Origin: an uncultured Phycisphaerales bacterium
GTDB taxonomy: Bacteria; Planctomycetota; Phycisphaerae; Tepidisphaerales; Tepidisphaeraceae
Assembly (NCBI GenBank): GCA_963844715.1
Contig: CAWJPJ010000007.1
Coordinates: 864,001 to 928,000, forward strand
Reading direction: 5' to 3'
Length of the DNA stretch: 64,000 bases
Numbering within the stretch: the first letter of the stretch is position 1; the number at the start of each line of letters is the position of its first letter. The translations under genes and the position numbers were made by a program. The notes under the pieces were generated by a model. The model did not search any database and was not told the origin of the DNA. It worked only from the letters and a program-made list of their open reading frames with translations. Shown here piece by piece: positions 10,956 to 51,584 of the stretch.

Positions 10956-11303
10956 GGAATGCCTCTTAAAAGAGTCACGTTGCCCCGGCTCTTTGGCCGT
11001 TATGCCTTTGGGGTATTGGTCGGACCGTGCCGCCGATCCGACCCCGGCCGAGGCCGGTGCAACCGGATGCTGTTTCTTGAATTTCCGGAAGGAACGGTCG
11101 GTCGCCAAAAATCTCCTCACGATCGGCTCCAACAGGTCTTTCGGTTCGATCTCCTGTCCATAGGTCTGCACATAGAGCCGACGGTACAAGAGTAAATCTT
11201 CGTTCAAGCCTGGATCGAGCCGGACGCGATATTCCACGGGCGGGCGGTCGTCGCGGAGTTTGGGAAGAGCAATCGTGGGCATGTCGACTCCTTGGCTAAT
11301 CAC
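10956..11303 (-). CDS. DUF2274-like protein
   Basis: LPKLRDDRPPV..RVRLDPGL...Y...YG..EPKDL..P....FLATDRSF; usual position after trbI in Tn4371-like elements. Confidence 0.75.
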
Positions 11304-12654: not shown

Positions 12655-12711
12655 GGCATTTTCCTTTTTTGCTGCAAGCGGATTGATTCGAAAGCACCGT
12701 TGGCGCCGCCA

Positions 12712-13686: not shown

Positions 13687-13734
13687 GATGTGCTCCGGAT
13701 AAACATGCGATTAAAGTGAAAAGATCTGTAGCTC

Positions 13735-14430: not shown

Positions 14431-14458
14431 GTGCGATTCCTTTGTTGAAAAAAACTTC

Positions 14459-15480: not shown

Positions 15481-15513
15481 AAATGCTCCTTCGCTCCACG
15501 GAGACCTGGGAAC

Positions 15514-16308: not shown

Positions 16309-16311
16309 GGT

Positions 16312-18772: not shown

Positions 18773-19050
18773 CAACCTTCCAAATGAGCGGGCAAACGAA
18801 TCTGACGGCGGAACACGTCCAGCCACAGCGGATCGGCCTTGGTCAGCGCCACCGCCGCCGCGTGCATCGCCAGCCCCAGGGGTACTCCCAGCCACCAAAC
18901 CTGCAAGCCCAAGGACAGGGCCGCGGCCATCGTGCCGTTGAGGATCGCCACGGGTCGGGGCACGCCTCCCATAAGCACCGATTGCGTCAGGGAAATGCTC
19001 AGGGGGATCTCGAAACCTTCGGGCTTTTCCTGATGAAGCGAACTGGTGGC
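18772..19050 (-). CDS. trbD: TrbD/VirB3 (start approximate)
   Basis: GFEIPL..SLT..VLMGGVPR..AILNGT.AAAL.LGL...DP. Confidence 0.85.
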   Translation of the reverse strand, partial: ATSSLHQEKPEGFEIPLSISLTQSVLMGGVPRPVAILNGTMAAALSLGLQVWWLGVPLGLAMHAAAVALTKADPLWLDVFRRQIRLPAHLEG

Positions 19051-19058
19051 GAGGGTTT

Positions 19059-19376
19059 TCAAAACGTCAGCCCTCCGGTGAACCCGAAGAAGGTCAGGCC
19101 GAACTGCGCGGCGGCGAAGGCGATGGACAGGCCCAGGACGACCCCCAGTACCCGGCGCAGGGTGCTGCCCCCCTCGCTGAACGCGAAGGCGAAGCCGACC
19201 GAGACAATGGCCAGCACTCCCAGGCCCTTGGCGACAGGGCCGGTGAGGCTTTGGACGATCTGGTCCAGAGGCCCCTCCCAGGGCATATCGGTGCCGGCGG
19301 CGAAGGCGGCGCTGGGGACAGCCAGCGCCATTCCTGCCGCGACTGCCATCAGCAGGCGAGAAGATCTGTGTTTCAT
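19059..19376 (-). CDS. trbC: TrbC/VirB2 pilin
   Basis: Signal peptide, MPWEGPL..I..SLTGPVA, GLSIAFAA. Confidence 0.9.
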   Translation of the reverse strand: MKHRSSRLLMAVAAGMALAVPSAAFAAGTDMPWEGPLDQIVQSLTGPVAKGLGVLAIVSVGFAFAFSEGGSTLRRVLGVVLGLSIAFAAAQFGLTFFGFTGGLTF

Positions 19377-19577
19377 GATGAAACTCCTCGTTAAAGTTCA
19401 CGTCATATGGCCCACCTGTCAGCGCACCTGAGCCAGTTGTTAGGAATGATGAGCATGAAGCGCGCGCCGTCGCGCGCAAGATCGGCGCGAAGTGACGGCG
19501 ATTTGAGTTGCGGGATCGTTGCGCTCTCGCGCTTCTCTAACGATGAAAGTGGCGCCACATATCGGGGGAGTGGGGAT

Positions 19578-32772: not shown

Positions 32773-34870
32773 TTGTCACCGACGACGCCGGTCCATCGAA
32801 GTCGTCGATGCGGATGGAGCGCCCAGTCGATGACGCGAAACGCGACCACATTCGTCGCTCTCATTGTATTCACGGCACTGTATGTCGTTGCGGGCAAGCT
32901 CGGACTTTCGATGGCGTTTCTCAACGCCAGCGCTTCGCCCATTTGGCCACCGACCGGATTAGCGCTGGCCGCAATGCTCTTATTTGGTTATCGCCTGTGG
33001 CCGGCAGTGCTGGTTGGGGCTTTTGTCGTAAACCTGACGACCGCAGGCACAATTTCCACTTCGGCGGTGATTGCGGCGGGTAACACCTTGGAAGCGGTCG
33101 TGGGCGCGATGCTCGTACGGCGCTTCGCTTCCGGCACGGCTGCTTTTGAGCTGGTGCCGAATATCTTTCGATTCACCGTGTTCGCCGCGATTCCGAGCAC
33201 GATGATTAGCGCGTACAGTGGGAGTCACGTGCCTAGCCATAGCCCACTTCGTACCGTGGGATTTGTATGGACAGGTATGGATGACGTGGTGGACTGGAGA
33301 TTTCGCCGGCGATCTGCTAGTCGCACCGCTTTTGATCATCTGGGCCACCGCGTCCCGGCCCGCCCTGAGGCTCCCACACATGTTGGAGGCGCTGGCCCTG
33401 GCGGCCGTTCTAATCGTGTTGGGTGACCTGATTTTCATCCGCTGGCATTCCCATTACGGTCAGGCGGAAGCGCTCGCTTATTTGGCGGTTCCATTGTTGA
33501 TCTGGGCGGCGTTCCGTTTTCAGCAACGGGGCGCTGTCGCCGCGGCGTTTTTGCTGTCGGCGATCGCAGTTCGAGGAACGCTCCGCGGCGCCGGGCCCTT
33601 TGCCACCGGCAATGCCAATGAATCTCTGGTGCTTCTGCAAACGTTCATGGGCGTCAACACGCTCATGGCTTTGATCCTCGCGGCTGTCGTTGCCGAGCGA
33701 ATGCGCGCCCACGGTGAGAGGGAACAGATTCTCCAGCGCGAGCGAAACGCGCGGGCTGAGGCGGAGCAAGCCAATCGCGCCAAGGACCAGTTCCTCGCTA
33801 TGCTCAGCCACGAACTGCGGACGCCGCTGAGCCCCGTCTTGCTCGCGACAACGTTGCTGGAAGGCAGTCCCGACCTGCCGCGTCATCTCTCCGAGCATAT
33901 TCAAATGATCCGGCGCAACGTCGAATTGGAGCGGCGGCTGATTGATGACCTTCTCGATTTGACGCGAATCACCCGTGGTAAGTTCCAACTGAATCTTACG
34001 ACAGCGGATGTCCATGAGGTGCTCCGCCTCGCCGTGGAGATTTGCTGTGCCGGACGAGTCGATGACCTCGTATTGAATTTGTCGGCGCCTCAGCATCATG
34101 TCAACGGCGACCCGGCACGGTTGCAACAGGTGTTTTGGAACCTAGTCAATAACGCCGCCAAATTCACGCCGGTAGGCCGGTCCATCACGATACGATCGAA
34201 GAACGTCGACGAGCAAAGTGCGATTGAGATTGAGGTCTCGGACACCGGCGCGGGAATTGAACCACAGTTTCTCCCGCGATTATTCAATGCGTTCGAGCAG
34301 GGTGATGCAACGTGCGCCGGACGTTCGGTGGGCTTGGTTTGGGGTTGGCAATCACCAAGGCGCTCGCCGAAGCGCACTGCGGCACGGTGACGGCCCACAG
34401 CGCAGGCCGCGATGCGGGCGCCACCTTTACGGTACGCCTGCCTGTCATAGCCGAGGTTTCACAACAAGAGTTTGAGCCGGCACCTAAGACCGAGCCAGTG
34501 CGAGTGCAAGGCGCAGGTATTGCTGGTGGAGGATCACGAGGAGACATTGCAAGTCATGGCTGAGTTGCTGAGGCGCCTCGGTCATGAGGTTACGACGGCC
34601 TCCACAATCAGGGAAGCGTTAACCGCCGCCCACGACAAACACTTCGACTTGGTCATTAGTGATTTGGGCCTTCCGGACGGCTTAGGCTATGACTTGATGC
34701 GTGCTCTTCGTGCGGGAAACCATTTGCGCGGCATCGCACTGAGCGGCTACGGAATGTCCGAGGACATCCAGTTAAGCCAAGAGGCAGGGTTTGCCGAACA
34801 CCTGGTTAAGCCGGTGGACCTAAATAAGCTGGAGGAGGCGATGATACGCGTCCTGGCAGGACACAAATAG
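32773..34870 (+). CDS. MASE1-domain hybrid sensor histidine kinase with receiver domain (several indels)
   Basis: SPIWPPTG..LA, GNTLEA, WWTGD (MASE1); FLAMLSHELRTPL, NLVNNAAKFT, DTG.GI, GGLGLGL; receiver LLVEDH...SDLGLPD...KP. Confidence 0.88.
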
Positions 34871-35197: not shown

Positions 35198-35817
35198 AAT
35201 AGGACGGCTAAAAGTGTCCAAGTTTAATCTAGATGAGATTTCTCGTTACCGATCGATTTTGTATTTCGACCGGGACTCATACTTTCACACACTTTCCACT
35301 TTGCGAGGAAATCTCAACGCTGCGCACGCTTAAATTCGATCGAGGTGATCGTCCCGCATTCGGGGCAGCGATCGGGGGTCGCGCGAAGGTCGTACCCGCA
35401 TCTAGGACATATTCGGCGCTTATGATAAAGACGCTGCAGGTGGAGATATCTTAAATAGCGGTAAATTTGATAGCAGGTTAGAAACGTCAAAATCGCCGAC
35501 GCGCCAAACTATCAAAAAAAATAAATAAAATAATCACGCCGCGATTCCGTTGCGGCTCATTAGTGCCAGACTACCAACTATAAAAAACTGAAGTGCAAAA
35601 TCCCAACCAAAAGCTGATGCCAAGACAAGAACAGCGATCATGGCAAATAATCTGGCGCGCGCGGTACCTTCATGTTAGCCACATCCACAGTTATACCTGT
35701 GAAAACGCTCTCGCGGGCAACCGGCCCTAGCTGATGGGATTGCCATAGCCGACAGAATACATTCATCTTAGGAATCCTCTTAGCAAAATCGATCTTCAGA
35801 TGTTCTAATCAATCCTG

Positions 35818-37422
35818 ATGACTTCGCGTACATTCAACCTTCCGGCTCGCCTGCAATCCAGGGGACAGCGGATCATGAATGGGAGAAATGTTGGTCTACT
35901 CTTGAACTTTCTGCCTCCGATCGCAATCGCGCTCGTCTTCTTTGTAATGGTCTATTCTCAGGCTCGGTATGCCCAATCATTGGCGATAAATCCGGATGAA
36001 GGGGTTAATTTGATAAAAAGTGCGATGGTCGCGAAGGGATACCATCTCTATAGCCAGATATGGAATGATCAGCCTCCCGTATTTACCCTGATGCTGAGCG
36101 AAGTATTTCGTGCGGTCGGATTCTCAATTGAAGCCGCTCGCATTTTTGTTTTGGTACTCTCAAGCATCCTGGTCGCCTGTCTTTACCAAACCATCCGGTG
36201 GCTTCATGATCACGGAACGGCGATCGTCACCGTTCTGTTTTTAGCGAGTTCTGCTTGGTTCATTCCGCTCAGCGTCGCCGTAATGATCGGCATGCCTGCA
36301 ATTGCGATGGCAGCAGGATCGCTTTTCTTGGCTAACGGTGCGATTCGATCGTCCAACCGCGCACTTTCCATGAGCCTGCTCTTTGCGTCTGGTCTTTTAT
36401 TTGGTCTGTCAATTCAAACGAAGATTTTTACGCTAATCGTCTTGCCGGCCGTGCTAATAAGTCTTCAGGGTCGGCCTGCCACCGTCTCGCGCAGGCAAGC
36501 TTATTGGGTTTGGTTTTTGAGCGTGTTGAATATTTTCATCCTTGTCATGGTGTTTACTGGAGAGAATTGGGACGAAATGCTGATTCCGCCGCTGCGACTT
36601 CGCGCAATGGTAGCTGTTAATCAAGTTTTTTCATTGCATGATATGTTTTCTCAAATCACCGAGCACTTCTTCTTTTTATTGCCGTTTTCACTCGTCGGTG
36701 TAATTGTGGGACTGCTGCGATCGCCAAGGGAGTCCTTTATCCCCATCTCGTGGTTGGCTACAGGCGTTCTCGTCTTCCATTTTCACCGTCCGTTGCGATA
36801 CCACTACTCACCGATGCTGGAGATTCCGCTGTGTTGGCTGGCGGCGATCGGACTATGCGCCACATTCATGCTAGGTCTTCGAGTATTTCTATGGGTCTGC
36901 TATCGTGCTTTGTCGAACGAAGAGACGAGGCCAAGCGCGTATGCATTTGCAGGGCATGCGACGGTTGCAACGTTGGTTGCGATGCTTGCAATAGGAGTGG
37001 CAACATACCTCACGATCGCTTTAACGTTTCGGGCTCACTATTGGCGTGAGCAGCTAAACCCAACCGTTTCATCTTTTTCTCATACTTCAAGTGCGCTTGT
37101 TGCCGAAATCCAGCAATTCAAAAGACATACTCATTGGATGTATACCGATCTTCCAGTCTATGCGTTCCGCGGCGGTGTGAATGTCCCACCTGAACTAGCT
37201 GTCATAACACAGAAACGCCGACAGACTGGCTTTCTTTCTGATGACCAAATTCTCGGGCTTATACACAAGTACACACCAGAACAAATTCTCATCGCCCGAT
37301 TTTCTTATGGGACAGATTTTCAGGCGATCCTGAGCCAGGATTACGTTCAGATTGGCGCCGAAGCCAGTAGATATAATCACGTTACCAGGCTGTATGTCAT
37401 CAAATCGTTGGCCGAGCGTTAG
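35818..37422 (+). CDS. GT-C fold membrane glycosyltransferase (ArnT/PMT-like)
   Basis: PDEG..L...GY.LY..IW.DQPP motif after the first TM helix; about 11-13 TM segments. Confidence 0.75.
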   Translation: MTSRTFNLPARLQSRGQRIMNGRNVGLLLNFLPPIAIALVFFVMVYSQARYAQSLAINPDEGVNLIKSAMVAKGYHLYSQIWNDQPPVFTLMLSEVFRAVGFSIEAARIFVLVLSSILVACLYQTIRWLHDHGTAIVTVLFLASSAWFIPLSVAVMIGMPAIAMAAGSLFLANGAIRSSNRALSMSLLFASGLLFGLSIQTKIFTLIVLPAVLISLQGRPATVSRRQAYWVWFLSVLNIFILVMVFTGENWDEMLIPPLRLRAMVAVNQVFSLHDMFSQITEHFFFLLPFSLVGVIVGLLRSPRESFIPISWLATGVLVFHFHRPLRYHYSPMLEIPLCWLAAIGLCATFMLGLRVFLWVCYRALSNEETRPSAYAFAGHATVATLVAMLAIGVATYLTIALTFRAHYWREQLNPTVSSFSHTSSALVAEIQQFKRHTHWMYTDLPVYAFRGGVNVPPELAVITQKRRQTGFLSDDQILGLIHKYTPEQILIARFSYGTDFQAILSQDYVQIGAEASRYNHVTRLYVIKSLAER

Positions 37423-37735
37423 GACATCGTTCGTAATCTTTCCAATCTTACTAACGCTGGCACAATGCGTTATGAAGAGATTTGTGCAATTTTGCCGACG
37501 GGCACGTAGCCATTGGAGATTTACGTTGACATATTGTGTCTAGGAGGTATGTTACATGGCGAATTCATCTTTAAGCGGGAACGGTGGGGCATACGTTTGG
37601 CACAACACCACCCCAGTAGTGACTACAATGGCGTCAAGAGTCTGCATCGCATAGGAGTCATTTTGGGCCTCGGAAAGATTTGGCTATTGATTGGCCGATG
37701 TAAAAGGTGCGAATATTCGGAAGGGAGGATGCAAA

Positions 37736-38203
37736 ATGATACGAGTTTTGCGTGTCATGTCCGTGTTGTTCGCAGTCGCGGTACTTACCGTTCTATGGGG
37801 ATCTACGAAAAATTTGGTTCCACCTATTGGGAGCGGCTATGTGCTTGGTTTGACGGATATGCGCCAAATTCACGGCATGACTGGCTGTCCGAGCGTGGCC
37901 CTGGGTCCAAATACACAATCTTGCCAAACGAATGGAATTGACTGTAACGGAACATACCCCAATTGTGGAACGTGCATCGGTCCTTGTGCAGAGAATGACT
38001 CCTTAACGAGCGGGATGGGCAATCCCGATGCCACAGGCTATTTTGCATCAAAACCCTGTCCAGGAAAATACTACGTGAATTCATGCGCTCCGTGGCAGAT
38101 CTTAGATCCGGACAATCCTTCTTGGGGATGTTCCTGCGACGATGGCACGCCGCTAACACCTCAGCCATGCGGCGGTAGCTACACCGGGTTGAATGGCTGC
38201 TGA
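37736..38203 (+). CDS. Secreted cysteine-rich protein A (12 Cys)
   Basis: GGAGGA RBS before ATG 37736; hydrophobic N-terminus; LTDMRQIHG-MTGCP; ends in GC. Confidence 0.8.
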   Translation: MIRVLRVMSVLFAVAVLTVLWGSTKNLVPPIGSGYVLGLTDMRQIHGMTGCPSVALGPNTQSCQTNGIDCNGTYPNCGTCIGPCAENDSLTSGMGNPDATGYFASKPCPGKYYVNSCAPWQILDPDNPSWGCSCDDGTPLTPQPCGGSYTGLNGC

Positions 38204-38245
38204 TACGGGACAACGATGAACGACGTGCTAATCTGGATTTAGGAG

Positions 38246-38752
38246 ATGATTATGAGACAGCGATTTGTCTATGTGATCGCACTTTTAGCCGCATCGGTAG
38301 TTTGGACATTTAGTTTCGGTGATGCTCGCGCTATGGGATCCAAGAATGGGCCTAGTGTAGCGATCATACTTGACAATTCGGCGATGAGTCAGATCCACGG
38401 TATGACCGGTTGTCCGGCGCTTTCGCTGAGTTCCTCAACAGCATGCGCTAACAACGGTAGCACCAACTGCAACGGAGGAATAACGACTAATGGTTGTCCT
38501 GGGACCTGCATGACTCCTTGCGGTGCAGATAACTCGGCGGGCAACAGCGGCAATGGCAACAACGCAAACGGTTATCTGTCTAGTGCTCCATGCACGACCA
38601 CGTACGCTGTAAACACCTGCATTCCCGGTACGATTACAGGTCCTGATGGTCAAGGTGGCTATGCGGACTACCCCACATGCAACTGCAACGGGTCGTCAAT
38701 CGGAAATGCATTACCTTGCGCTGGCACGTACACTTTCGAAAAAGGCTGTTAG
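38246..38752 (+). CDS. Secreted cysteine-rich protein B (12 Cys), paralog of A
   Basis: AGGAG RBS; signal peptide ending ARA; LDNSAMSQIHG-MTGCP; same Cys order; ends in GC. Confidence 0.82.
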   Translation: MIMRQRFVYVIALLAASVVWTFSFGDARAMGSKNGPSVAIILDNSAMSQIHGMTGCPALSLSSSTACANNGSTNCNGGITTNGCPGTCMTPCGADNSAGNSGNGNNANGYLSSAPCTTTYAVNTCIPGTITGPDGQGGYADYPTCNCNGSSIGNALPCAGTYTFEKGC

Positions 38753-38885
38753 TAATAGTCGTTTTTCAAACAGTCCGTTGCCCCCAAGAAACGATTCTAG
38801 TAGCGTCTGCCGGATTCGCTTGATAGTTCCAGACATGTTGGGGCGGTGAGAGGGCGTATCTCTAGCTCATCGTGAGGTCACATCC

Positions 38886-40121
38886 ATGCGCTTCTTGCGA
38901 CCTTACCTCGTTGCGGTGTTCGTGAGTCTTTTCTACGCTGGCCAATTTGGGACATTGGAACCAAGCGGCGGGCGCGCGATAGCCGCGACAACGGCACCGT
39001 CCGCCGGCGAACAATCCGATCATACTTCTTCGTTGTCACCTCAGTTTACTCGGCAGGACATCCTTGCCTACGTTGAAGCAGGTCGATCGAAGATATCTGA
39101 TTTAACTGTGTCGTTCTCTTTCAACGCGACGCATTCTGGACCTGACGATGCGGCGATTCGCGATCACACAAAAATTATCCTCAAGGGCTCAATGATCTAT
39201 AGCGATGAGGTCTACGGAGGCGATGCTTCCAAATCACCGCGCCTTTACGACCGCGAATTGGCTTTCAACGGCCACATTGGCACGATCCACCAAAAAAGCG
39301 AAGGCATTGCATCCTTTGGGCCGGAGAAGCCAATCGATTGTCGTGTGAGGGGGACAGGATTTTTCGATCTAGGTTGGCTCAATCCCCCTATCGAGGGCGG
39401 CACCGGCTGGAATGATCAGAGTCTGATCTCCCTGGTAAAGTCGTCTACGTCCAAGATGCGTCCCCAGCTGGAAATCGTGGCCGGTCACCCGTGTTACGTA
39501 TTCGACGCCTTTGGACCCGAATCAGACGCAACTGATCCAATGATTACCGCATGGCTTGATCCACAACAAGGATTTTTACCGATCAAAGTCGTCTATTTCT
39601 TGCGATCAACTCCCTTGATGGAGTCAGACATTTATACATCCAAGGAGGTTCTTCCAGGTTTGTGGATGCCCCTGCGTGGCCGCAAATACGTGTATTTTCG
39701 CAAAGATAGTCCTTATATCCGCGAAAATCAGGAACATATCATGATCGTGGATAGCGCGGACTCGGAAACGCCAGCGATCGCAGTGAATACGGGAGTCAAA
39801 GACGATTTTTTTGATCTGTGGAAGCATTTGCCTCCGGGTACGCTTTTAATCGACAAGCAAACTCGGAAAATGATAACTGTCGGTGGAAAGGATTGGCGTG
39901 CGACCGCGGATGAAGCCGTAGCCTCTGCCGCTGGTCAAGATTTGTCCGTGACAGACGCTGCTTCGGTTGGATCGCCGGTTACGCCGGCATCAGCAACCGT
40001 TGGACCAACCCCTGTATCATGGTGGAGCAATTCCGTGTTGCTCGAAGTTGGATCGGGTGTTGTTGTCCTAGTGTTGTTGATCCTAAGCGCAGTGATATTC
40101 CGGTTTCACAAAATGGCGTGA
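38886..40121 (+). CDS. Exported beta-rich protein (possibly LolA-like fold) with C-terminal membrane anchor
   Basis: Signal peptide; E.VAGHPCYV...WLDPQQGFLP.K...GLWMP..G motifs; C-terminal TM helix followed by basic residues. Confidence 0.6.
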   Translation: MRFLRPYLVAVFVSLFYAGQFGTLEPSGGRAIAATTAPSAGEQSDHTSSLSPQFTRQDILAYVEAGRSKISDLTVSFSFNATHSGPDDAAIRDHTKIILKGSMIYSDEVYGGDASKSPRLYDRELAFNGHIGTIHQKSEGIASFGPEKPIDCRVRGTGFFDLGWLNPPIEGGTGWNDQSLISLVKSSTSKMRPQLEIVAGHPCYVFDAFGPESDATDPMITAWLDPQQGFLPIKVVYFLRSTPLMESDIYTSKEVLPGLWMPLRGRKYVYFRKDSPYIRENQEHIMIVDSADSETPAIAVNTGVKDDFFDLWKHLPPGTLLIDKQTRKMITVGGKDWRATADEAVASAAGQDLSVTDAASVGSPVTPASATVGPTPVSWWSNSVLLEVGSGVVVLVLLILSAVIFRFHKMA

Positions 40122-40144
40122 TGGGTAATTGGGTTGCGGGATAA

Positions 40145-41974
40145 TTGAGAATGTGGGGAACTTCGCCCATGACCGAGAGAGAACGCCCTATATTTTTTTT
40201 GTTAGTTTCGGTCTCGGCATTTCTGCTGCAAAGCGCAGTTGGCGCCGCCAGCATCGCCACGGATAGCGCCACCCCGGCAGACGGACGTTGTTCATTATCG
40301 CTTGAGGATGCAAACCTCTCCGCGTCCCCGCCTGCCTGCGGCCCGGCAAGCATGGCAATCGCCCTTAAATTGCTCAACTGCAGCTTTACGAATGACGAAC
40401 TGACGAGGCTTGCCGACAGCCAAGGGGATTCAACATTCGCAGAGTTGGCCGAGTTCGCACAGCACAAAGGCCTTTACGCGGTCGCGGTGCGTTTGGGGCC
40501 AGGTCAGTTACTAAAGCTTCATCGAATCGCTATCTTGCAAATACTCTCGCCGCTGATCATAAATGGCGTTCACGCGCCCCATTTCATCGTGTTTGCCGGA
40601 CCCGTGCCAGGCACCGACCATGGCCCATGGTGGAACAAGGACTCGGTATTTTTGTTCGACTCAGTAGCCGGGGATGGCCTGCGCGGCCCATTGCCCATCG
40701 AAGCGCTATCAGAGATGTACACTGGGAACGCCCTAGTGCTATCAAAGTATCCTGTCGATCCGAATGAATTCGCTGTTGCTCATGCGGAGTCCCCGCACGA
40801 TTCGTCGCGCACGATCCGCGACGGCTCCATGGCAGGGTTGGGCGCCGCAGCAATTTTGCTATTTTGTGCCACCCTTCGCAGAAAAACGGGTTCGACAACG
40901 ATGCCGACTGTCGCGCCAACGATTGCGATGGTCATTTATATGACCCTATTTTCCGCCTCATTCAATTCTGCGGCCGCCGATTCGAGCAACCCAACTACGC
41001 GACCGGCAGGTGACTCGGCTGCTACTATTAACTCGAATGCCAACCAGCTCTGTGATGTCGGGAATGTTTCAAAAGGAGAACAAGTCCAACATTCGTTCGA
41101 ATTCACGAATTCTAAACCGATCGACATTGACTTACAGATCGCAGGAACTAGTTGTACATGTTTAAGCGCGCGGTTCGATGGACCGTCTCATCTTCGGCCG
41201 GGTCAAAAAACTAACGTTGTGCTGTCTGCCATCGCACGTAATGGCGGTCCCGTGCAAACCTCCGCTCTGATCAAGACTTCGGCGCAAGAAATGTTTCTCC
41301 TGACTATTCAGATGGCGGTGATAAACGACACGGATTATAGTCCGCGCACTGTTGATTTTGGAGATGTTTGGGCAGACCAAGGAAAGCAAAGCCGCCCTCT
41401 ACATTTTACGCATTACACGTCGAATGCGGGCGCATTCAAAGACTTTCTTGTCCGCTCTTTCTCACCATGCGTAAGCGTTTCGCTGGACAAACCAACATGG
41501 ACCAGTGGAAGCGACGGCGCGAAAACCGTCGATGAGAACGTAACGATTACTCTTGACCCGGCGTTGGCCTCGCTGGGTCCATTAGGTAAAGGTATTTTGG
41601 CAACGGCGAGCGACGGTAATAAGAAACTTTCATTCACGATTGATTGTATCGGCCAAGTTGTGCCTATCGTTGGGGCAATCCCTGATCAGATCGCGGTATT
41701 CGGCGCAAACCTCCCAAATGAAATCCCGGCATCGGTGACGCTAAAGGCAGTTGATGGACGCCTTGTGAACGTCGAAACGATTGAAGCATCGAATTTGACG
41801 ATCGCCAAATGGACGGCAACACCATCGGGGGACGGAACAATAAATCTGGAGATTATAATTCAACCAAACATGCTGCAGGGTCGGGCTCAAGGATCGCTGC
41901 ATGTCAAATTCATCGCGCTTAAGCACTATATGCTTGATATTCCCGTTCGCGTGGTGGATACGACGTCCCGATAA
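40145..41974 (+). CDS. C39-like cysteine peptidase domain + TM hairpin + DUF1573/Ig-like domains
   Basis: ACGPASMAIAL...G.STFAEL...A...GL.A..V...HFIV...LFDS...YTGNAL (C39 Cys/His/Asp); later F.FTN...TSCTC......L.PG (DUF1573-like); no ABC ATPase. Confidence 0.75.
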   Translation: MRMWGTSPMTERERPIFFLLVSVSAFLLQSAVGAASIATDSATPADGRCSLSLEDANLSASPPACGPASMAIALKLLNCSFTNDELTRLADSQGDSTFAELAEFAQHKGLYAVAVRLGPGQLLKLHRIAILQILSPLIINGVHAPHFIVFAGPVPGTDHGPWWNKDSVFLFDSVAGDGLRGPLPIEALSEMYTGNALVLSKYPVDPNEFAVAHAESPHDSSRTIRDGSMAGLGAAAILLFCATLRRKTGSTTMPTVAPTIAMVIYMTLFSASFNSAAADSSNPTTRPAGDSAATINSNANQLCDVGNVSKGEQVQHSFEFTNSKPIDIDLQIAGTSCTCLSARFDGPSHLRPGQKTNVVLSAIARNGGPVQTSALIKTSAQEMFLLTIQMAVINDTDYSPRTVDFGDVWADQGKQSRPLHFTHYTSNAGAFKDFLVRSFSPCVSVSLDKPTWTSGSDGAKTVDENVTITLDPALASLGPLGKGILATASDGNKKLSFTIDCIGQVVPIVGAIPDQIAVFGANLPNEIPASVTLKAVDGRLVNVETIEASNLTIAKWTATPSGDGTINLEIIIQPNMLQGRAQGSLHVKFIALKHYMLDIPVRVVDTTSR

Positions 41975-41997
41975 GCCGGCGCTGACGGGCGACAATC

Positions 41998-43149
41998 ATG
42001 CCAAAATCAAATTATCTGCATCGACTGAGCCTGTGGATGGTCGTCGTAATAGTTCTTTGTTGTGCAATCGCACTGGCAAGCCTGAAATCGTTCAACAATC
42101 GAGCCAGATCCACCGCAAATCCCGTCACCATGTCGCCCGATATCCGAGAAGCGGCGACACAGAACGTTGTGAGAGCGCACGAGGCACTCGCGAGATACGA
42201 CGCGGCACCCACAGATACAAGCCAAACGCCTTGGGCGTTATTCCACGGGCTACTAGGGCATCACGGTGATTTCCCGCTGCGAGATTCTATTTCCGGGGAG
42301 AGCGTAAATTGTGAGGACTGGCTGTTGCAGCAGGCAGCTGCGAAACCGATTTATTGGCAAACGCCGTTAGTCACGCAACGGGACTGGGGCGTTTGCTTTA
42401 CACACGGCAACCTCACCATCACAGAGCGTTTTGAGGATCACTTTTGCCAGTTCTTGTTTATTCTTATGAATCTCGGCCTCGATCCTGATAGGACGACGGT
42501 AAGAGTGCCACCGGACGGCCACGCATGCACGTTGAGGCAGATGGTCTACAACGAACAAACGTTTTGCAACGGGGCGCTGGACGTGAGTTGGGCGTTACCT
42601 CTCTTTGCCAGGTGGGGAAATCCGACTTGGACGAATAAATTCAACGAGCAATACGACCTTGGGTCTTTGATGACCCAACATCTTGATCTCGAAAAGCATT
42701 GTGACGCTTGTTTTGGAACCCACTGGCGGATGGGTCTGGCACTAACTTTATCATTCGCGGCCGAGCGGCTTCCAGAGGATGTGCGGGAACGGGCGAATAG
42801 TCGTCTTCAGCAGTTGATCGAAGAAGCTCATACCGGCCAAGATCCGGATTCAGGCCGTTTCCGTCTTGAGTCCGCGGCGGCAGCGATCGGTATCCACGAT
42901 CTCAGCCAACTTCCAAGTGATCGATCCGCCATTCTTTCGCATCAGGGCCATACATTGGCGTGGCTTATGGTTGCTTTGTCCGACGATCAATTGGCCACCG
43001 AAATGTGGCCACATAAGGGGGTAGAATTTCTAATAGATCAGTTGCAAGGTCCAACGGATTCCCTCAACTACGGCGCCTATTCGCACTGCGCGGATGCACT
43101 TCGTCTTTACCAAGCACGAATGCAATCGATCCTAAACTCGTCGAGATGA
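41998..43149 (+). CDS. Membrane-anchored/exported helical protein of unknown function
   Basis: N-terminal TM helix; motifs PWALFHGLL, H.CQFL, ACFGTH, GH.L.WL, HC.DALRLY. Confidence 0.7.
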   Translation: MPKSNYLHRLSLWMVVVIVLCCAIALASLKSFNNRARSTANPVTMSPDIREAATQNVVRAHEALARYDAAPTDTSQTPWALFHGLLGHHGDFPLRDSISGESVNCEDWLLQQAAAKPIYWQTPLVTQRDWGVCFTHGNLTITERFEDHFCQFLFILMNLGLDPDRTTVRVPPDGHACTLRQMVYNEQTFCNGALDVSWALPLFARWGNPTWTNKFNEQYDLGSLMTQHLDLEKHCDACFGTHWRMGLALTLSFAAERLPEDVRERANSRLQQLIEEAHTGQDPDSGRFRLESAAAAIGIHDLSQLPSDRSAILSHQGHTLAWLMVALSDDQLATEMWPHKGVEFLIDQLQGPTDSLNYGAYSHCADALRLYQARMQSILNSSR

Positions 43150-43159
43150 CTGGTCGCGT

Positions 43160-44152
43160 ATGGAATTGCAAATCAATTCACACCAAGCGATTGACGCAGC
43201 GCCACATTGCGCTCAACTCGCCTCTCGCGAACGATTGCATAGAATTACTGAAGTTTTAATTGCTATTGTCTTTTTCACCGCCGCAGCTTTTAAGGCATTT
43301 GCACTTTTTGAGCACTCCCAGCCGACTTTTTTATCGCCGTTATTTCAAACACGAATTTCACGCGGACTTCTCGCACAGATCGAATTGGCGATCGCTACGT
43401 GGCTTGCGATTGGCGGCTGGTCTCATGCCCGACTAATAAGCGCTTTGATCTTCCTGGCGGCACTATCAGCCGTGGCGACATATGACGCGGCCCATTCATA
43501 TCCGAGTTGCGGATGTTTCGGATCACTCAAGATTTCCCCCTTGATCACGCTAACGTTCGACGTATTGGCAATCCTAGCTCTTGTGGCCACCCGGCCGCGA
43601 TCACATCGACTTGCATTCACTCCGCCATCTCGTCGTCGGCGGGCAATTGCGGGTGGTTTTTTCCTGGTTTCATCTATGTTCATCTGGGTGGCATGTGCTT
43701 ATAGCCCACATACCCAATCGCAAGCCGGTTCTTTGCCATCAAATGCATCGGACGATGTAATCGTTCTGACGCCACAACTATGGATTAACCAGTCGTGGCC
43801 TTTATTTGCTGACGTTGATCAATCGACTGCGCTCCGCCGCGGCCGATGGCTCATTCTTATGTACCATTACGATTGTGACTCCTGTATTCGAGCGATTGCC
43901 AACTATCGAGCCATAGGCAGATTTAGCATTTCTAATCGGCCAAACATTGCATTCATCGCGATACCGCCCGACGCACCTGTAGACGAAGACCCTGTCCCCG
44001 CCTCGTCGAACTACCTTCGATTAAAACTCACATCTGAGCACGAATGGTTCGCGACAACCCCACTCGCACTGTACTTGGAGAATGGCTTAGTTCGACATGT
44101 CGCCGAAGGAGACGCCGCCGAGAGACCCGATCCCACCTGGTGGCAACCCTAG
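43160..44152 (+). CDS. MauE/DoxX-family membrane protein fused to a thioredoxin-like CxxC domain
   Basis: TM helices with SCGCFG (MauE signature); soluble C-terminal domain with YH.DCDSC and WF.TTP. Confidence 0.75.
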   Translation: MELQINSHQAIDAAPHCAQLASRERLHRITEVLIAIVFFTAAAFKAFALFEHSQPTFLSPLFQTRISRGLLAQIELAIATWLAIGGWSHARLISALIFLAALSAVATYDAAHSYPSCGCFGSLKISPLITLTFDVLAILALVATRPRSHRLAFTPPSRRRRAIAGGFFLVSSMFIWVACAYSPHTQSQAGSLPSNASDDVIVLTPQLWINQSWPLFADVDQSTALRRGRWLILMYHYDCDSCIRAIANYRAIGRFSISNRPNIAFIAIPPDAPVDEDPVPASSNYLRLKLTSEHEWFATTPLALYLENGLVRHVAEGDAAERPDPTWWQP

Positions 44153-44207
44153 CGCCGCGAATACTTGGCTAAAAGTCTCTCTCCTGACTGCAATCGAAAA
44201 ATCCGAT

Positions 44208-45236
44208 TCAATTTCGTTTCATACCTGCAGCAATCTGATCCTCCTGAAAAGTCGCCTGATCTATTTCGGATTTATATTGCAACTGCATCGGCAGATTTGG
44301 CCGGTAACGGCGAACAAAGGCATCATAATAACCTTCAGCTTCGTGGCCCCGGCCCAAATTACAAAGGCTGTCGATCAATGGAGGAAGTGCGTTGGCTGAG
44401 TATTTGTAATCTGGCTGATCTATTACACTCTTAAAGTGAACAATTGCTTCCGCATATCTACCTGAGCGGTAAAGGGCTAATCCAAAGCCCCAATCAAAAG
44501 CATTTCGTTCCCCTTGCTTCATTCCCGCAGGCGAAAGTTTTTCCAGAATTCCCACTGCATCTGATGTCTGTCCTTTCAACATGAAACACTCTGATAGCCC
44601 GATTTTTACATGAGTCATGGACCTCGTGACCGTTGCATCGCCTGGAACATAATGTCGAACCATGTCGGAATAAATACAGAACAAGGTGTTCAACGCTTCG
44701 GTGTGTTGGTCATCTCCGCTTTCGATCAAAGGCCAAAGCACATTTTTATAGTCCTGCATGTGCGCCTGCATGGCTTGAAGAATCGGAAGTGTCCTGGTGG
44801 AAGATCCGTTTGCTGCGAGCAATTCGCTTTCGGCGTGGCTTGCCGCCGTCCGGTAGATGACTTCGCTTGCGCGAGGGTCTTTCGAGACGGTATGGAACGC
44901 CTCCGCAATCGCAAATAAATCAGTAGCCCGCAGAGACGTACTCGACAAGGTCGCTCTCAAATTGGCAAGCATGTCCGCGGAAGAGACAGTGCTCGCGGGC
45001 GATTTCTGAAGCCTGACGACCATCCATTCCCGAAGTCGAGGATCGCCGGAACTCATCGAAACCAACGTATCGCTGTTTGTCGCTTGCGAAGTTCGACCGC
45101 CTGTCGGCAATTCGTCCGATAGTTCTGTAGTCCGTGATTGAAGCAAGAACAGCAGTAGAGCCAAAAAAATAGCCAAGGAGGATAGGATTACGGCTGTTAA
45201 GAGCACACGCCGACGAGCAGCATCAATTCCCATCAA
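44208..45236 (-). CDS. Membrane-anchored TPR-like helical protein
   Basis: N-terminal TM helix; GLALYRSGRYAEAIVHFK TPR-like repeat. Confidence 0.65.
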   Translation of the reverse strand: MMGIDAARRRVLLTAVILSSLAIFLALLLFLLQSRTTELSDELPTGGRTSQATNSDTLVSMSSGDPRLREWMVVRLQKSPASTVSSADMLANLRATLSSTSLRATDLFAIAEAFHTVSKDPRASEVIYRTAASHAESELLAANGSSTRTLPILQAMQAHMQDYKNVLWPLIESGDDQHTEALNTLFCIYSDMVRHYVPGDATVTRSMTHVKIGLSECFMLKGQTSDAVGILEKLSPAGMKQGERNAFDWGFGLALYRSGRYAEAIVHFKSVIDQPDYKYSANALPPLIDSLCNLGRGHEAEGYYDAFVRRYRPNLPMQLQYKSEIDQATFQEDQIAAGMKRN

Positions 45237-45626
45237 ACACCCCGCAATGACTTATAAATGTCCCTACAGAATATCATTTTACGGCGAAATTTACAGAATA
45301 ATCGTCTTTCGAAGTTCCCAACCGACTTGACTGCAATCGGCGTCGTTCTATGCCCTATGGGGTGCAGTCGGGCTGGGGGCCGGCATCGTATGTGTTGCAA
45401 GCGAGTGACAGACATCCGTCTTTTCGCTAGCAACATGTTGGTTTCTGGCGGTATACTATGGGGATAGCTTTTGGAACATTGATTATCGGGAGGGAATGAT
45501 CGCGCATCTAGGGCAATCGTCGGCACGGGACCGCCGTTTGTTCGACAGACCGCGAAACTAGATCCGAACTTCCGCGGTCTCGAAATTCTGAAATAGACGC
45601 AAGTGTGCTGGGAGGAATCCAAAGCC

Positions 45627-47329
45627 ATGGCTTGGCTTTTGCGATGGAAATTTTGGCATTGGACACTCGCGTCAATGGCGCTCGGATGGGTTTTGTCCTA
45701 CTGGTATGGTGGGCGCGTTTTTATTCCTGACGATCCAACGGCGCGAGTCAGTGAAAGCTATTTCTGGCATCAGGTAGACATCTCATCGAACCTTCAGGCC
45801 GCCACAGTCGATCGGATTATCCTTTATCCAATTCACCGCAAGGTCCAACTAATCACATTTGAATTGGTGACACACGACCTCACGCAGAGGTCTGGCGTTG
45901 CATTTCATTTTTTTTACGCAACACATGGCGATATCGAGCCCCGATTGACCGCAGCGCAAATCACTTTTGCTCGCGCTTGGTGGACCTCGCCGGTTTTTGG
46001 CGACCTCTTTTGGGGTGGGGGCACAGTGCTGGTTTTCGGTCTCGCTTGGCCGTTACTCTTATTTGATCTTCGGCGCCGTGGTTTCGGGCCGCCGATAATC
46101 GAGTCGCCAGTAGAGCTGCCCAAATCTCCCCTCAAGCAACAACAGGCCGACCAAATCCCCGCGAAGGCAACTACTGCCACGTACTCAAAACTTACCGTAT
46201 TGGACGCGATGATGGAAAGGAGCCTCTTATTACCCGAGCGACAACACTCACCCTCTCCACAACCACCGGCGGGCAACGTGAGATCGCTTAATACCACTCC
46301 GCTCGATCCACAAATCAGCGAAAAACCCCAGGAAGGGAAGGAATATGAAGGCATCTACTACCCCGTCGAGCATCCTAAATCAAAAAAGCCCGAGGGTTTT
46401 ACTCTAGTCGAACTCCTAGTGGTAATTGGGATTATGGCGATTCTGCTTGGATTGCTACTTCCGGCAATTACAGGTGCAAGATTAGCGGCGATGCAGCTAA
46501 TTTGCACCTCCAACTTACGCGCCATCGGTCAAGGCTTTTCAGTTTATCTAGCGCAGAATGGAGGCACCTATCCGCCCGCCTACACTTACGTGGGCGAGAC
46601 AATTCAAAACGGTATTGAACAGCCCACAGAGCCGAATCAAGGACATCTTCACTGGAGTTGGTACTTGTTCAAAACGGGCGGCGTTCCGGCAGAGTCGTTT
46701 CAATGCCCATCGCTCGATCAAGGGGGCCTCCCACCTGAACAGACCACGCCCGACAACTTGGAGCCCGGGCAGGCGAATTTGGCACCGCCGGATCAACAAG
46801 CTTTCCGCCTAGCCTATACCGTTAATGAAGCAATTGTTCCGCGAAATAAATTCGTTCTTGGCTTTCAAGGCGCGGTTCGTTATTACCAATACGTCAAAGC
46901 GAATCAGGTCACACATCCGAGCCAGACGATTTTAGCAACTGAGTGGGGCCCTGCCGGTGCGCGCGTTCCCCGCGACCGGAACCTCGGGCTACTTTCGCGT
47001 CCAAAGTCATCGTCCTGTTGCAGGATATGTTACGGGCTCAGGAATACTTGATTTCTATAATCTCCCGCCCGGAGCCGCGGTTTCGGCCGGCTACAGCGTC
47101 AGACCTCGATCCCGACCCCGACAGCACTACGGGCTTCACACATGTGGAGCTTGATTGGGTGGGACGTAACCATGGTCTCCGCGCGGGTTACCCAGATGAT
47201 CGCCGTACGAATTTTCTCTACGTTGATGGACACGTCGAGTTGAAAAGTATCTATGAAACTCTCGCACCATTCCAATGGGGTGAACAGTTTTGGAGCCTTA
47301 ATCCGCGAAATGATCAAGAAACTCCGTAA
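45627..47329 (+). CDS. DUF1559-type prepilin/H-X9-DG protein with an N-terminal membrane extension (indels near 46960-47050)
   Basis: Internal GFTLVELLVVIGIMAILLGLLLPA...C.SNLR.IG, FQCPS; C-terminal NH...TNFLYVDGHVE. Confidence 0.8.
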
Positions 47330-48244: not shown

Positions 48245-49199
48245 TCAACTGTCAATGGCTTCGATGCGGTATTCGCTTCCATCGAATCCTGTGACTTTGC
48301 TGATGGACTCGATGCGCCGGCCCTCGTGCGTGCGGCGGATGAATACGATTATTCCGATCGTGCGAGCGATGGCCCGGCGCGGAACGTGACGCGAGACCTC
48401 TCCGATCAAATCTTCCAGCCGAGACAGTGCATCTTCGGCGCTGTTGGCGTGAAGGGTTGCCAGTCCACCCGGATGTCCCGTGTTCCATGCCTTCAGCAGC
48501 GCGCACGCTTCGCCACCGCGCACTTCGCCCACGATAATCCGATCTGGCGCAGCGCAAAGCGCAGCGCACCAGTTCCTCCATCGTCACCGGCGGATCGGTC
48601 GGCTTGGTGAGCAGTTCCACGCGATCGGGAGAACTGCATTGCAATTCGCGGGTATCCTCGATGAGCACCAGCCGATCCCCGGCGAATGCCGCCTCGGCTA
48701 ATACGGCATTGGCTAAAGTGGTTTTGCCTGACCCGGTGCCCCCGGCGATGAGGAGGTTGTCCCGCCGGTCGGCAGCGTCGCGGATCGTGCGGGCTTGAGT
48801 TGCGGTCATAATTCCCTGCCGCACATAATCATCCAAGGTGAAGATCAGTTCCGCCCGTTTGCGGATGCAAAACACGGGACGCTCCGTCACCGGCGGAAGT
48901 TGCCCCTGGAAGCGCTGGCCGGTATGAGGCAGCGTCCCACTGAGCAGTGGGCGATGCCGGCCCACGGCTTCGCCGACGTGATCGGCCACCAGACGGATGA
49001 CCGATTCGGCGCGAGATGCTTCGATACTGCCAATGCGCGAGCGACCCTCACCGGCTCGGTCAATCCACACCTGCCCATCGGCATTGGCCATCACTTCGAC
49101 CACGCGCGGGTCATCCAACACTTGCAGGATGGCTGATCCCAGGGCGGCGCGGAGCATGTCATCGAATCGATCCGTTGATGGATTATTTGCCGTTGCCAT
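48245..49199 (-). CDS. trbB: TrbB/VirB11 ATPase (indel near 48550)
   Basis: LRAALG..I...L.D..VVEVM.N.DG, GGTGSGKTT, IEDTRELQC, GEVRG.EA..LLKAWNTGHPGG..T.HAN. Confidence 0.92.
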
Positions 49200-49710
49200 C
49201 GGATTCCTCTTTCATCTCGCCTGTTTGAAGTTCGCCGAACTCCGATAGACGCTCATCCGCGTCGGTCGTATCCTCTGGCGCCGCGACGGCCGGCTCCGGC
49301 ATCAGTTCCAGCGCCGAAGGTCCTGATCCGGCATGCTCCGCCAAAATCTCCAGAAAGCGGGCAAAGCGCAGCTGGCCATCCGCCGCGGCGGCTTCACGAT
49401 GCTCTTCCGGCATGCCGGGCGTGTGGTTGTAAAACGTGCGGACAAACAGCGCCAGCATCTCTCGAATCACGCGCAGCTCCTGGCTCGTGCGCTTGGAGTG
49501 GTTGTGAACGTGCCAGTGCAGGCGGTCCAGGTTCTGTGCCACCACTTGCTGGCGCTGGTCCTGCTGCTCGGGGCTGAAGAACTGACTGAGCGCCAGACTC
49601 ATCACCTGCGAGCGGGATCGGTTCGGATGCGCCTGGCAGTAGCGGGTTAAGGACTCAAAAACCTCCGGGTCAATCGTGCCGGATACCAGAACCTTGTTCT
49701 TTGTTTTCAT
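49183..49710 (-). CDS. CopG/RHH-like protein
   Basis: SRSQV...AL..F.SP; E.LALFVR...TP...A.G..RF..F; usual position between traG and trbB. Confidence 0.7.
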   Translation of the reverse strand: MKTKNKVLVSGTIDPEVFESLTRYCQAHPNRSRSQVMSLALSQFFSPEQQDQRQQVVAQNLDRLHWHVHNHSKRTSQELRVIREMLALFVRTFYNHTPGMPEEHREAAAADGQLRFARFLEILAEHAGSGPSALELMPEPAVAAPEDTTDADERLSEFGELQTGEMKEESDGNGK

Positions 49711-51584
49711 CAGTAAAACCCTCCGACTCTCCTGCCCTGATCCTCTGGTGGATTGTCAATGGAAGCTGGCCGAGGTGCCATCGCCGGCGCCTCATCCTCC
49801 CCTCCGCCAATCCGCAGGTCCGGCGGCAGAGGCAAGGGCGGACCTTTGGGCCGCTCCTCGCGCCAGTCGTTATTGCCGGCGGCGGCGCTCTTAAGTTGCG
49901 GTGAGGTGTTTGAGGAATCCGGCGACGCGATGACGCGCTGGGCCAGGGCTGTGTGCTCGTAATACCGCAACTTGTCGGTGCGGAAGGGCTTGAACCCGGT
50001 TACGAATATCAACTGCTGGTCATTGGGCAGCGTGCGGATTTCCCCAGGATGCAGTAGGGGCCTGACCTGCTCGCTGTGGCTGATGTTGCGCCGGCCCACG
50101 CCGACTACCATCTGCGGGCGGCTGTAGCTGGCGCGGTATTCAACCTTCTCCCCGGTCATCTGACTTGTCCGCTGCTGTGTCACCGTGTCGGCCGAGGCAA
50201 AGCAACACAGGAGATGGCAATTGTCGATAATCGTGTTGTGCGGGCCGTAGTGCTCGACAATATCGTTGAAGCTTTGGACAACCAATTGGCTCTTAATTCC
50301 ATACCCGGCCATCTGTCGCAGATTCATGGAGAAGAACTCCAGCCGCCCCAGTGTCGGGAACTCATCGAGCAGCATCAGCAGTCGGTGCTTCTTCTTTCGT
50401 CCACGCGAGTCGGTGTCTCGATGCTCCATCAGCGCTCGCGCTGCCTGGTTAAGCATTAGGCGGACCAGCGGCCGCATACGGTCGGCATCCGAAGGGGGAG
50501 GCTGCAAATAGAGCGTGAACGGTCTGTCCAGGCACATGAGATCGCCAATGGCGAAGTCACTGCGGCTGGTTACCTGACAGATTACCTCATCCGCCCACAG
50601 GGTCATGTGCCCTTCGGCGGTTCCGCGGACACTGGAGCGGAAGCGCTCGGCCTGACTGAGCAGCGATTTGGCTACGCGGCCGATCTCCGGATAGACCTGG
50701 GGCTGGCCCGTATGAGGGTCCAGACGATGCGGCGTGGTCATCATCGCCACACACGTATTGTCAAAATCGAGCAATAGCTGCCGCACGCGGCCCAGGTTTT
50801 TTTGCTCTGGGGGCTCGCTGTAGAGCACGTGTAATACAAGAGCGACAAGGAATTGGCTGGCGTTCTGGTCCCACACGTCCAGCGTGCGCTTGGAGCCGTC
50901 GGGGTTCACCAGCATTTCCACTAGGTTCTGCACATCGCGAATCTCGTGAGGGCCTTTGCGGACCTCCAACAATGGATTAAAGCGGGCGCTATCCAGCCGT
51001 GTTGGGTTGAAGAGCACGCAGTGCTGATAGCGGGAGCGATAGCCCGCAGTGGCCTGCCATAGTTCTCCCTTCACGTCATAGGCGATTGCACTGTCCGGCC
51101 AGCACAGAAGCGTGGGGACGACATGACCGACGCCTTTGCCGCTGCGGGACGCACCGCTGACGATCTGGTGCTCCGGCCCATCGTAGGTCAGCAGCTTGCC
51201 TCGATGGATTCCAACGACCGTACCGCGGCACTTGAGCAGACCGGCGCGTTTCATGTTGCGCCTGGTTCCCCACCCTTCGATCCCGAATGTTTTGACCTGA
51301 AAGCGCCCGCCGCCCCCGATTATCGCGGCCAACGCCGATACAACGCTCGCGTAAAGCAGGAAAGCGGCGATTGCTATATCCGTCGCCGGCGAGCGCATCG
51401 GTGAACTGGCCATCGTCCAACTGAGCAGCGCCCATGGCACGTACAACGTCCAGCCGTTGCCACGATACAAGCCGCCGCTGAGCATCGCCGCATCGTTCAT
51501 CTGTCTTGCCGCGCATTGGGTGGCGACCCACAGGCCGGTTACCAGCAAGCTCAACAGAAGTGAGAATTTGAACAGACGCATCAT
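49710..51584 (-). CDS. traG: Type IV coupling protein TraG/VirD4
   Basis: GPEH, RSGKGVG.V.PTLL.W, D.KGE.W..TAG.R, RFNPL.EVR, LDEFP.LG.L.FF, MAGYG. Confidence 0.93.
   Translation of the reverse strand: MMRLFKFSLLLSLLVTGLWVATQCAARQMNDAAMLSGGLYRGNGWTLYVPWALLSWTMASSPMRSPATDIAIAAFLLYASVVSALAAIIGGGGRFQVKTFGIEGWGTRRNMKRAGLLKCRGTVVGIHRGKLLTYDGPEHQIVSGASRSGKGVGHVVPTLLCWPDSAIAYDVKGELWQATAGYRSRYQHCVLFNPTRLDSARFNPLLEVRKGPHEIRDVQNLVEMLVNPDGSKRTLDVWDQNASQFLVALVLHVLYSEPPEQKNLGRVRQLLLDFDNTCVAMMTTPHRLDPHTGQPQVYPEIGRVAKSLLSQAERFRSSVRGTAEGHMTLWADEVICQVTSRSDFAIGDLMCLDRPFTLYLQPPPSDADRMRPLVRLMLNQAARALMEHRDTDSRGRKKKHRLLMLLDEFPTLGRLEFFSMNLRQMAGYGIKSQLVVQSFNDIVEHYGPHNTIIDNCHLLCCFASADTVTQQRTSQMTGEKVEYRASYSRPQMVVGVGRRNISHSEQVRPLLHPGEIRTLPNDQQLIFVTGFKPFRTDKLRYYEHTALAQRVIASPDSSNTSPQLKSAAAGNNDWREERPKGPPLPLPPDLRIGGGEDEAPAMAPRPASIDNPPEDQGRRVGGFY

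Follow-up and report, generated by a model that had tools for sequence, protein, structure and literature searches.

The window analyzed here, a 64,000-nucleotide stretch of DNA from an uncultured Phycisphaerales bacterium, contains a gene cassette that is a real, coherent system and apparently undescribed in the literature searched. Peptide maturation by double-glycine leaders and C39 peptidases is already known, and the cassette is a variant of it that is turned outward: its two precursors are probably exported through Sec, folded oxidatively with six disulfides, and relieved of their leader by a C39 peptidase in the periplasm. No description of the cassette was found in the open PMC and bioRxiv literature, a scope that most subscription journals fall outside. 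The precursor genes and their parts are as follows:

37526-37553 (+): sigma-70-like promoter candidate (TTGACA-16-TATGTT), 5′ of precursor 1
37736-38203 (+): precursor 1 (ORF1), 155 aa
37736-37804 (+): hydrophobic signal or signal anchor of precursor 1, about residues 1-23, hydropathy 2.25 over residues 2-20
37844-37879 (+): double-glycine-type leader of precursor 1, positions −12 to −1 (L37, M42, I45, G47, M48)
37880-38200 (+): predicted core of precursor 1, 107 aa, 12 Cys
38252-38752 (+): precursor 2 (ORF2), 166 aa
38252-38332 (+): signal peptide of precursor 2, residues 1-27, ending in A-R-A, an AxA site read by eye
38369-38404 (+): double-glycine-type leader of precursor 2, positions −12 to −1 (L40, M45, I48, G50, M51)
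38405-38749 (+): predicted core of precursor 2, 115 aa, 12 Cys

Both start codons are preceded at 6-7 nt by an SD-like sequence (GGGAGG/AGGAG). The signal peptides were called from hydropathy; by eye, no clear AxA site is present in precursor 1. Alignment of the two proteins gave 40% identity (tblastn E ≈1e-16 to 1e-19), confirming the initial annotation of two paralogs with a hydrophobic N-terminus, the segment QIHGMTGCP and 12 cysteines. QIHGMTGCP is the longest invariant block between them, and every cysteine lies C-terminal to QIHG, in the same order in both proteins, with spacings of 11-6-6-2-3-23-8-14-1-10-9 in precursor 1 and 10-7-8-3-3-23-8-19-1-10-9 in precursor 2. With six disulfides, the predicted cores have masses of ≈10.87 and ≈11.06 kDa, respectively. 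Both are acidic (pI ≈4), with only one or two Lys/Arg, and rich in G, T, N, S and P; neither contains His, and core 2 contains no Trp. The same DNA was recovered in public soil-metagenome contigs, and no further paralog was found in the 4.55-Mb genome, which is 85% complete.

In an alignment of ten family members, two of them further database proteins, 11 Cys columns were invariant (10/10), while the twelfth Cys and the leader glycine at −2 were each present in 9/10; the median identity of the core outside the cysteines was 18%. Both window precursors end in Gly-Cys-stop, which had been read as a trait of the scaffold. However, this ending is shared by only five of the ten, and what is invariant is the last Cys alone. 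A ferredoxin-like reading (CxxCxxCxxxCP) was rejected since the spacing varies, and prenylation of the C-terminal Cys was dropped, as several relatives run beyond the last Cys and the 12 cysteines would pair completely.

The leader consensus of PCAT substrates is given as L(−12)xxxE(−8)L(−7)xxxxG(−2)G(−1) in PMC6959990, with positions −12 and −7 serving as the binding knot. Both window leaders fall into this register, with L(−12), M(−7), I(−4), G(−2) and M(−1). Since the consensus places Gly at −2 and Met at −1, the cut is predicted after Gly-Met. Neither Gly nor Ala stands at −1 in this close group, where both window precursors have Met and the other members Arg, Lys or Ser; in the same register relatives carry G-S, G-K, G-R or, in distant ones, a literal G-G, for example LSASPLALIEGG, LMGDQLSQIDGG and LSDKEQGEVWGG.

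The full leader motif, scored by a mechanical rule, was present in 8 of 21 precursors compared to 4 of 239 other cysteines and one of 111 control proteins with a hydrophobic N-terminus from the host genome (p ≈1e-6, or 3e-5 once three close relatives were collapsed), a comparison in which the rule was composed after the sequences were known and the precursor set was chosen by a filter and by eye. The rule missed 13 of the 21 precursors. In a follow-up with the rule unchanged, 20 separately chosen regions around C39 genes of non-ABC length yielded six candidates in five regions, of which three passed and two more had GG by eye; the other 15 regions held no candidate precursor. One locus (L092) has a textbook leader, yet a C39 gene was not detected nearby. 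Judged from these sequence comparisons, the window leader belongs to the real double-glycine type. The initial proposal of a signal peptide followed by such a leader is thus borne out by the register, the enrichment, the GG relatives and the exported C39 peptidase described below, while the cut that it placed at HG|M was one residue off.

The peptidase is encoded two genes downstream of precursor 2:

40145-41974 (+): signal peptide, C39 peptidase and DUF1573 Ig-like domains, 609 aa

Its catalytic residues are C65 (at 40337), H146 (at 40580) and D172. Two hydrophobic segments around the sequence RRK precede the DUF1573 domains, and from the order of signal peptide, peptidase, hydrophobic segment and RRK, the peptidase domain most likely faces the periplasm. 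This protein is the sole PF03412 match in the 85%-complete genome, scoring 21.7 bits as a whole protein (cut-off 22) and 24.5 bits when the genome was scanned. A profile built from nine cassette C39s had LahT as its best PDB match (6MPZ, E 3.6e-8), with ComA and PCAT1 ranking next. All nine of these homologs have the catalytic Cys and His, and eight have the Asp. The column six residues N-terminal to the catalytic Cys, which in canonical C39s holds the oxyanion Gln, contains Gln in none of the nine. At the positions that form the leader pocket in PCAT1, A55 is replaced by F or L in 9/9, and the I59 position is, in our own reading, hydrophobic in 3/9.

The missing oxyanion Gln, the partly altered pocket and the Gly-Met site would all fit a leader that is vestigial here, with a C39 that acts as a non-cutting chaperone or cuts another target, so that QIHGM stays on the mature protein. 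For FapD, the sole tested periplasmic C39, the Fap study (PMC5557850) did not resolve a target. Against this, the catalytic Cys and His are invariant, and the leader positions hold their register all the way from G-M via G-R, G-K and G-S to G-G, which makes a vestigial leader quite improbable. In the maturation that we favor, the anchored, periplasm-facing C39 would bind L(−12), M(−7) and I(−4) and cut after Gly-Met, releasing the acidic 107- and 115-residue cores. The leader would then serve as a periplasmic pro-peptide rather than as an export signal. If the signal of precursor 1 stays uncleaved, the same cut might, speculatively, also free the folded core from the membrane.

The system resembles the PCAT/AMS exporters (PCAT1-CtA, LahT, ComA) in its leader register, with L(−12), hydrophobic residues at −7 and −4, and G(−2), and in its homologous Cys/His/Asp peptidase. 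In contrast to these exporters, the cassette C39 stands alone, carries a signal peptide and is predicted to face the periplasm, with no ABC transporter in the cassette; the leader follows a Sec-type signal, the −1 residue is often not Gly, and the cargo is a 12-Cys protein of about 110 residues. The lack of an ABC exporter, the Sec-type signal ahead of the leader and Met(−1) indicate that the cassette is not a PCAT member. The nearest topological precedent is FapD of Pseudomonas, described in PMC5557850 as a Sec-exported, periplasmic C39 that acts on Sec-exported substrates. That was also the only paper on a periplasmic C39 found in the open PMC and bioRxiv literature. The Fap substrates described there differ in being amyloid subunits rich in Asn and Gln that have no canonical leader, and compared to the Fap system, the cassette has no FapF-like pore and adds MauE-thioredoxin, LolA-like, DUF1573 and toroid genes.

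The source of the disulfides is presumably encoded in the same cassette:

43160-44152 (+): MauE fused to a thioredoxin-like CxxC domain, with CGCFG at 43508 and CDSC at 43874

The window MauE has the features of PF07291, namely four TM helices, a CXC-F-G loop, and Lys and Glu in helices 1-2, which were placed by motif position rather than by alignment to the experimentally tested proteins. Among 13 cassette MauE ORFs, CGCFG is found in nine (a tenth has CGCYG) and CxxC in eight; no MauE was seen in 17 kb of locus L006. According to the passages searched in a recent report (10.64898/2026.03.05.709764), MauE-type enzymes have been shown experimentally to form disulfides in other bacteria, MauE proteins of two phyla substitute for DsbB in E. 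coli via a CGC motif with F-G directly after it, thioredoxin fusions make up ≈8% of MauE entries, and MADH requires six disulfides that are formed with MauD/MauE; these passages mention neither Planctomycetes nor C39. Since neither DsbB nor VKOR was found in the host genome (85% complete), the oxidase may arrive with the cassette itself. In the proposed sequence of events, the N-terminal signal, as judged from hydropathy, would route the chain through Sec, and the membrane-bound MauE-thioredoxin would then oxidize the 12 cysteines to six disulfides. That each core contains six disulfides, as first suggested from the cysteine count, is likely, and it is supported by the presence of this oxidase in the cassette.

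Twelve cysteines could also be thiolate ligands in periplasmic metal-binding or buffering proteins, similar to metallothioneins or bufferins. The CxC and Cx2-3Cx3C spacings would suit such a role, and bufferins, which are copper-chelating RiPPs, are mentioned together with signal peptides and DoxX in the parts of the bufferin papers that were searched. However, the co-encoded MauE-thioredoxin is of a disulfide-forming type, the cysteines are even in number and fixed in position, the cores are devoid of His, and MNIO and metal-resistance genes are absent among the neighbors scanned. Metal binding is therefore very unlikely.

The combination of a CGCFG MauE and a thioredoxin CxxC beside an exported small protein with 12 cysteines, and hence six potential disulfides, is also reminiscent of the small subunit of MADH, and would suggest a cofactor-bearing, MauA-like subunit of a quinoprotein dehydrogenase matured by MauD/MauE. 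The cassette differs in that the two conserved Trp cofactor residues are lacking, as are MauG and MauB, and the solved MADH chains gave no sequence match. The lack of any Trp in core 2 largely excludes this explanation, which we consider exceedingly improbable.

The cores themselves resemble no known domain in the sequence searches carried out; a match to a metal-binding or structural domain was the outcome that the initial annotation had named as speaking against it. Pfam and NCBIfam models matched none of the 21 precursors at a meaningful level, and PDB sequence searches returned no matches. A single-sequence homolog search recovered only the query itself, an alignment-based search only known members, and a search of the ESM Atlas gave no usable match. 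An AlphaFold2 model made from the ten-sequence alignment was of low confidence (pLDDT 49.7, pTM 0.26), and Foldseek found no fold match to it at E ≤ 0.001; because a search with such a model is uninformative, we propose no disulfide connectivity. Bacteroidota NVEALA (PF14055) cassettes are similar in outline, with a signal peptide, a short conserved leader-like motif, a Cys-rich core, and thioredoxin and DUF1573 neighbors. They differ in having a β-propeller partner instead of a LolA-like one, and the PF14055 profile matched none of the 21 precursors at E ≤ 1. NVEALA is not named in the open PMC and bioRxiv literature searched.

The scaffold had previously been likened to diversifying defensin- or toxin-like families. 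A classical antimicrobial role, in which the products are toxins akin to defensins or bacteriocins, their scaffold diversifies rapidly and a cassette gene provides immunity, draws on the double-glycine leader and C39 as hallmarks of bacteriocins, on the fixed cysteines and variable loops across the family, on the location in mobile cargo, and on the presence of two paralogs. Defensins are small cationic peptides with three to four disulfides. The cores, however, are net acidic (pI 4.0-6.1 in all seven examined) and ≈11 kDa in size, none of the 21 precursors matched bacteriocin or defensin family profiles, and the ABC exporter is missing. Moreover, P0013, an ortholog of precursor 2, has retained 92 of 115 core residues compared to 11 of 27 in the signal (8 of 12 in the leader and 4 of 12 in the spacer), a pattern that is purifying rather than diversifying. 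The acidity and this conservation argue against a cationic, fast-evolving defensin, and the likeness to diversifying toxins is not supported; on the whole, an antimicrobial of the classical kind is unlikely.

The remaining genes of the cassette and its surroundings encode the following proteins:

38886-40121 (+): exported protein with a C-terminal membrane anchor, 411 aa
41998-43149 (+): N-anchored (α/α)6 toroid of no named family, 383 aa, with conserved His/Cys motifs
44208-45236 (−): N-anchored TPR protein, with homologs beside the cassettes of L006, L010 and L014
45603-47329 (+): prepilin-type (DUF1559-like) protein with a long N-terminal extension, a possible accessory

The gene for the 411-aa protein directly follows the precursor in relatives. 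The protein has a weak PDB match to RseB (E 0.23) and an Atlas match to a PF17131 cluster (0.90), and the LolA_like profile matched one of eight members of its family (E 0.21). A LolA/RseB-like fold and a corresponding role are thus a lead only, suggested by distant similarity. The predicted model of the toroid (pLDDT 85.7) gave generic (α/α)6 matches in a structure search (Z up to 17.1, rmsd 3.8, 276 residues aligned); neither LanC nor a protein prenyltransferase appeared in the 50 best rows, a result compatible with membership in either family. The prepilin-type gene has an internal N-methylation motif after an extension of ≈260 residues, an architecture that is repeated in locus L006 (10053-11522; 36% identity over 204 residues). 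Of 22 related cassette regions, only three showed a prepilin motif. Public contigs have one base fewer at 46966 and at 47075, and because they lack those bases, the break in this gene is probably an assembly error.

From gene linkage, the LolA/RseB-like neighbor might bind or carry the product, and the DUF1573 domains and the toroid might act as accessory partners. Neither an outer-membrane channel nor an ABC exporter is encoded in the cassette; the host genome contains five secretin matches. Exit of the product could possibly occur via a secretin-type system, and a prepilin-linked export route would be a guess.

The precursor, the 411-aa homolog, C39 and the toroid occur in this order in all six of the distinct, testable loci, which were left from nine found in a search with the toroid after removal of one duplicate and two that were too short. 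Four of the six, from genome records, belong to Tepidisphaeraceae, Phycisphaerae or Planctomycetota. Homologs of the 411-aa protein were found in 17 of 401 genomes of the phylum and in 16 of 141 of the family, the latter tally including an unpublished genome (G283, the source of locus L084), and in neither of two same-genus genomes searched. Of 37 regions around such homologs, 10 contained a Cys-rich precursor that carries a signal but has another scaffold, and a C39 was detected near five of these ten. The partner genes also exist alone, as seen from L004, with a toroid homolog outside any cassette, and L084-L086, with strong LolA-like matches but no precursor or C39 detected. Across 16 cassettes, the similarity of the cores tracked that of the partners in Mantel tests (rho 0.32 and 0.43, reached in 9 and 1 of 5000 permutations), for which shared inheritance is a sufficient explanation.

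The main rival to a secreted binder is that the same maturation yields a structural or surface subunit, with leader removal as the trigger for it to assemble or to dock onto its partners, namely the LolA-like, DUF1573 or toroid proteins. Every cassette partner is membrane-anchored, orthologous cores are conserved, and the G/T/N/S/P-rich, acidic composition would suit such a subunit. The tracking of core and partner similarity points the same way, though kinship alone accounts for it, and there is a precedent in FapD, whose processing is required for secretion of the Fap amyloid according to PMC5557850. Nevertheless, the cassette has no amyloid-like repeats or FapF-like pore, and the patchy, ICE-borne distribution and divergent tandem paralogs are better suited to accessory interaction factors, so that we regard a structural subunit as somewhat unlikely. 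Our own tentative suggestion is that the cores may reach the cell surface or the medium and act there as target-specific binders in microbial competition, and not as membrane-lytic defensins. A wider and more doubtful extension is that they may be part of a Planctomycetota-wide group of extracytoplasmic ribosomal products with 5-7 disulfides, for which the His/Cys-rich toroid would be a new tailoring enzyme or receptor and a dedicated pseudopilin-like protein would guide the folded product out of the cell; the group would then be a bacterial counterpart of the pre-pro disulfide-rich peptides of eukaryotes.

The cassette lies within a block of distinctly low GC content:

35800-47100 (no strand): low-GC block holding the cassette, GC 0.513

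This value is lower than in all 400 equal-sized windows of the genome (mean 0.594, sd 0.014). The block sits in an insert of ≈29 kb by which an ICE has its trb operon interrupted, with trbB/traG/virD2 at 48255-53333 on one side and the remaining trb genes at 10683-19479 on the other; the ICE integrase adjoins tRNA-Arg at 8912-8985. The cassette is thus accessory, horizontally moved cargo. The ICE region spans 8912-57000 of the window, the ≈29-kb insert carries two triplets of tyrosine recombinases, and repeats of the tRNA 3′ end are located 89-113 kb downstream, beyond the window. Upstream of the block, a MASE1 histidine kinase is encoded at 33218-34870 (+), apparently with its receiver domain in a separate frame, which is possibly another assembly frameshift.

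Promoter-like sites numbered 5 compared to 2.2 ± 1.5 in shuffled sequences, a weak hint. The interval from precursor 2 to the gene after it contained no stable hairpin (z +1.48), and no terminator-like site was found. One metatranscriptome run gave short contigs at 38106-38303 and 38701-38916 only, over 13 kb, and such contigs can neither show transcription nor rank genes. Directly 5′ of precursor 1, in the same low-GC block, is a gene for a PMT_2-family membrane glycosyltransferase (35818-37422, +), of which no homolog was seen in related cassettes; glycosylation of the Ser/Thr-rich cores by this neighbor is possible but unsupported.

If the proposed maturation is correct, the topology of the double-glycine/C39 system is inverted, with export by Sec and a protease that acts on a pro-peptide after translocation. 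Periplasmic C39s, exemplified by FapD with its missing target, would gain a family of clearly tagged substrates, and dedicated clients would be identified for MauE-type disulfide formation. The cassette points to a little-studied planctomycete route to disulfide-locked miniproteins outside the cytoplasm. Because Pfam and NCBIfam models recognize none of the 21 precursors, such six-disulfide miniproteins of Planctomycetota would probably escape genome mining.

Several related loci depart from the arrangement in the window. Locus L136 (3625-4593, +) has a tandem pair of 10-Cys precursors, both with a textbook GG leader, next to LolA-like and C39-DUF1573 genes, and one of these precursors is the hypothetical protein WP_145173907.1 of Gimesia aquarii, a cultured organism; these tandem GG-leader precursors beside the same kind of C39 make the idea directly testable. 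Cys-rich precursors beside LolA-like genes in L055 (8937-9374) and L056 (8530-9039) have only a short G-A-x-C junction, and C39 was not detected in the fetched regions; they may represent a leader-reduced variant. Loci L135 (5044-6714), L138, L143, L144, L148 and L149 encode signal-peptide proteins of 550-620 residues with a C-terminal C39 domain and another part that weakly resembles the 411-aa family (E 0.004-0.2), possibly fusions of partner and peptidase. Finally, the contig of L005 has, in a second precursor cassette, an exported C39 (10394-11533, −) that by eye is apparently fused to a rhodanese-like domain.
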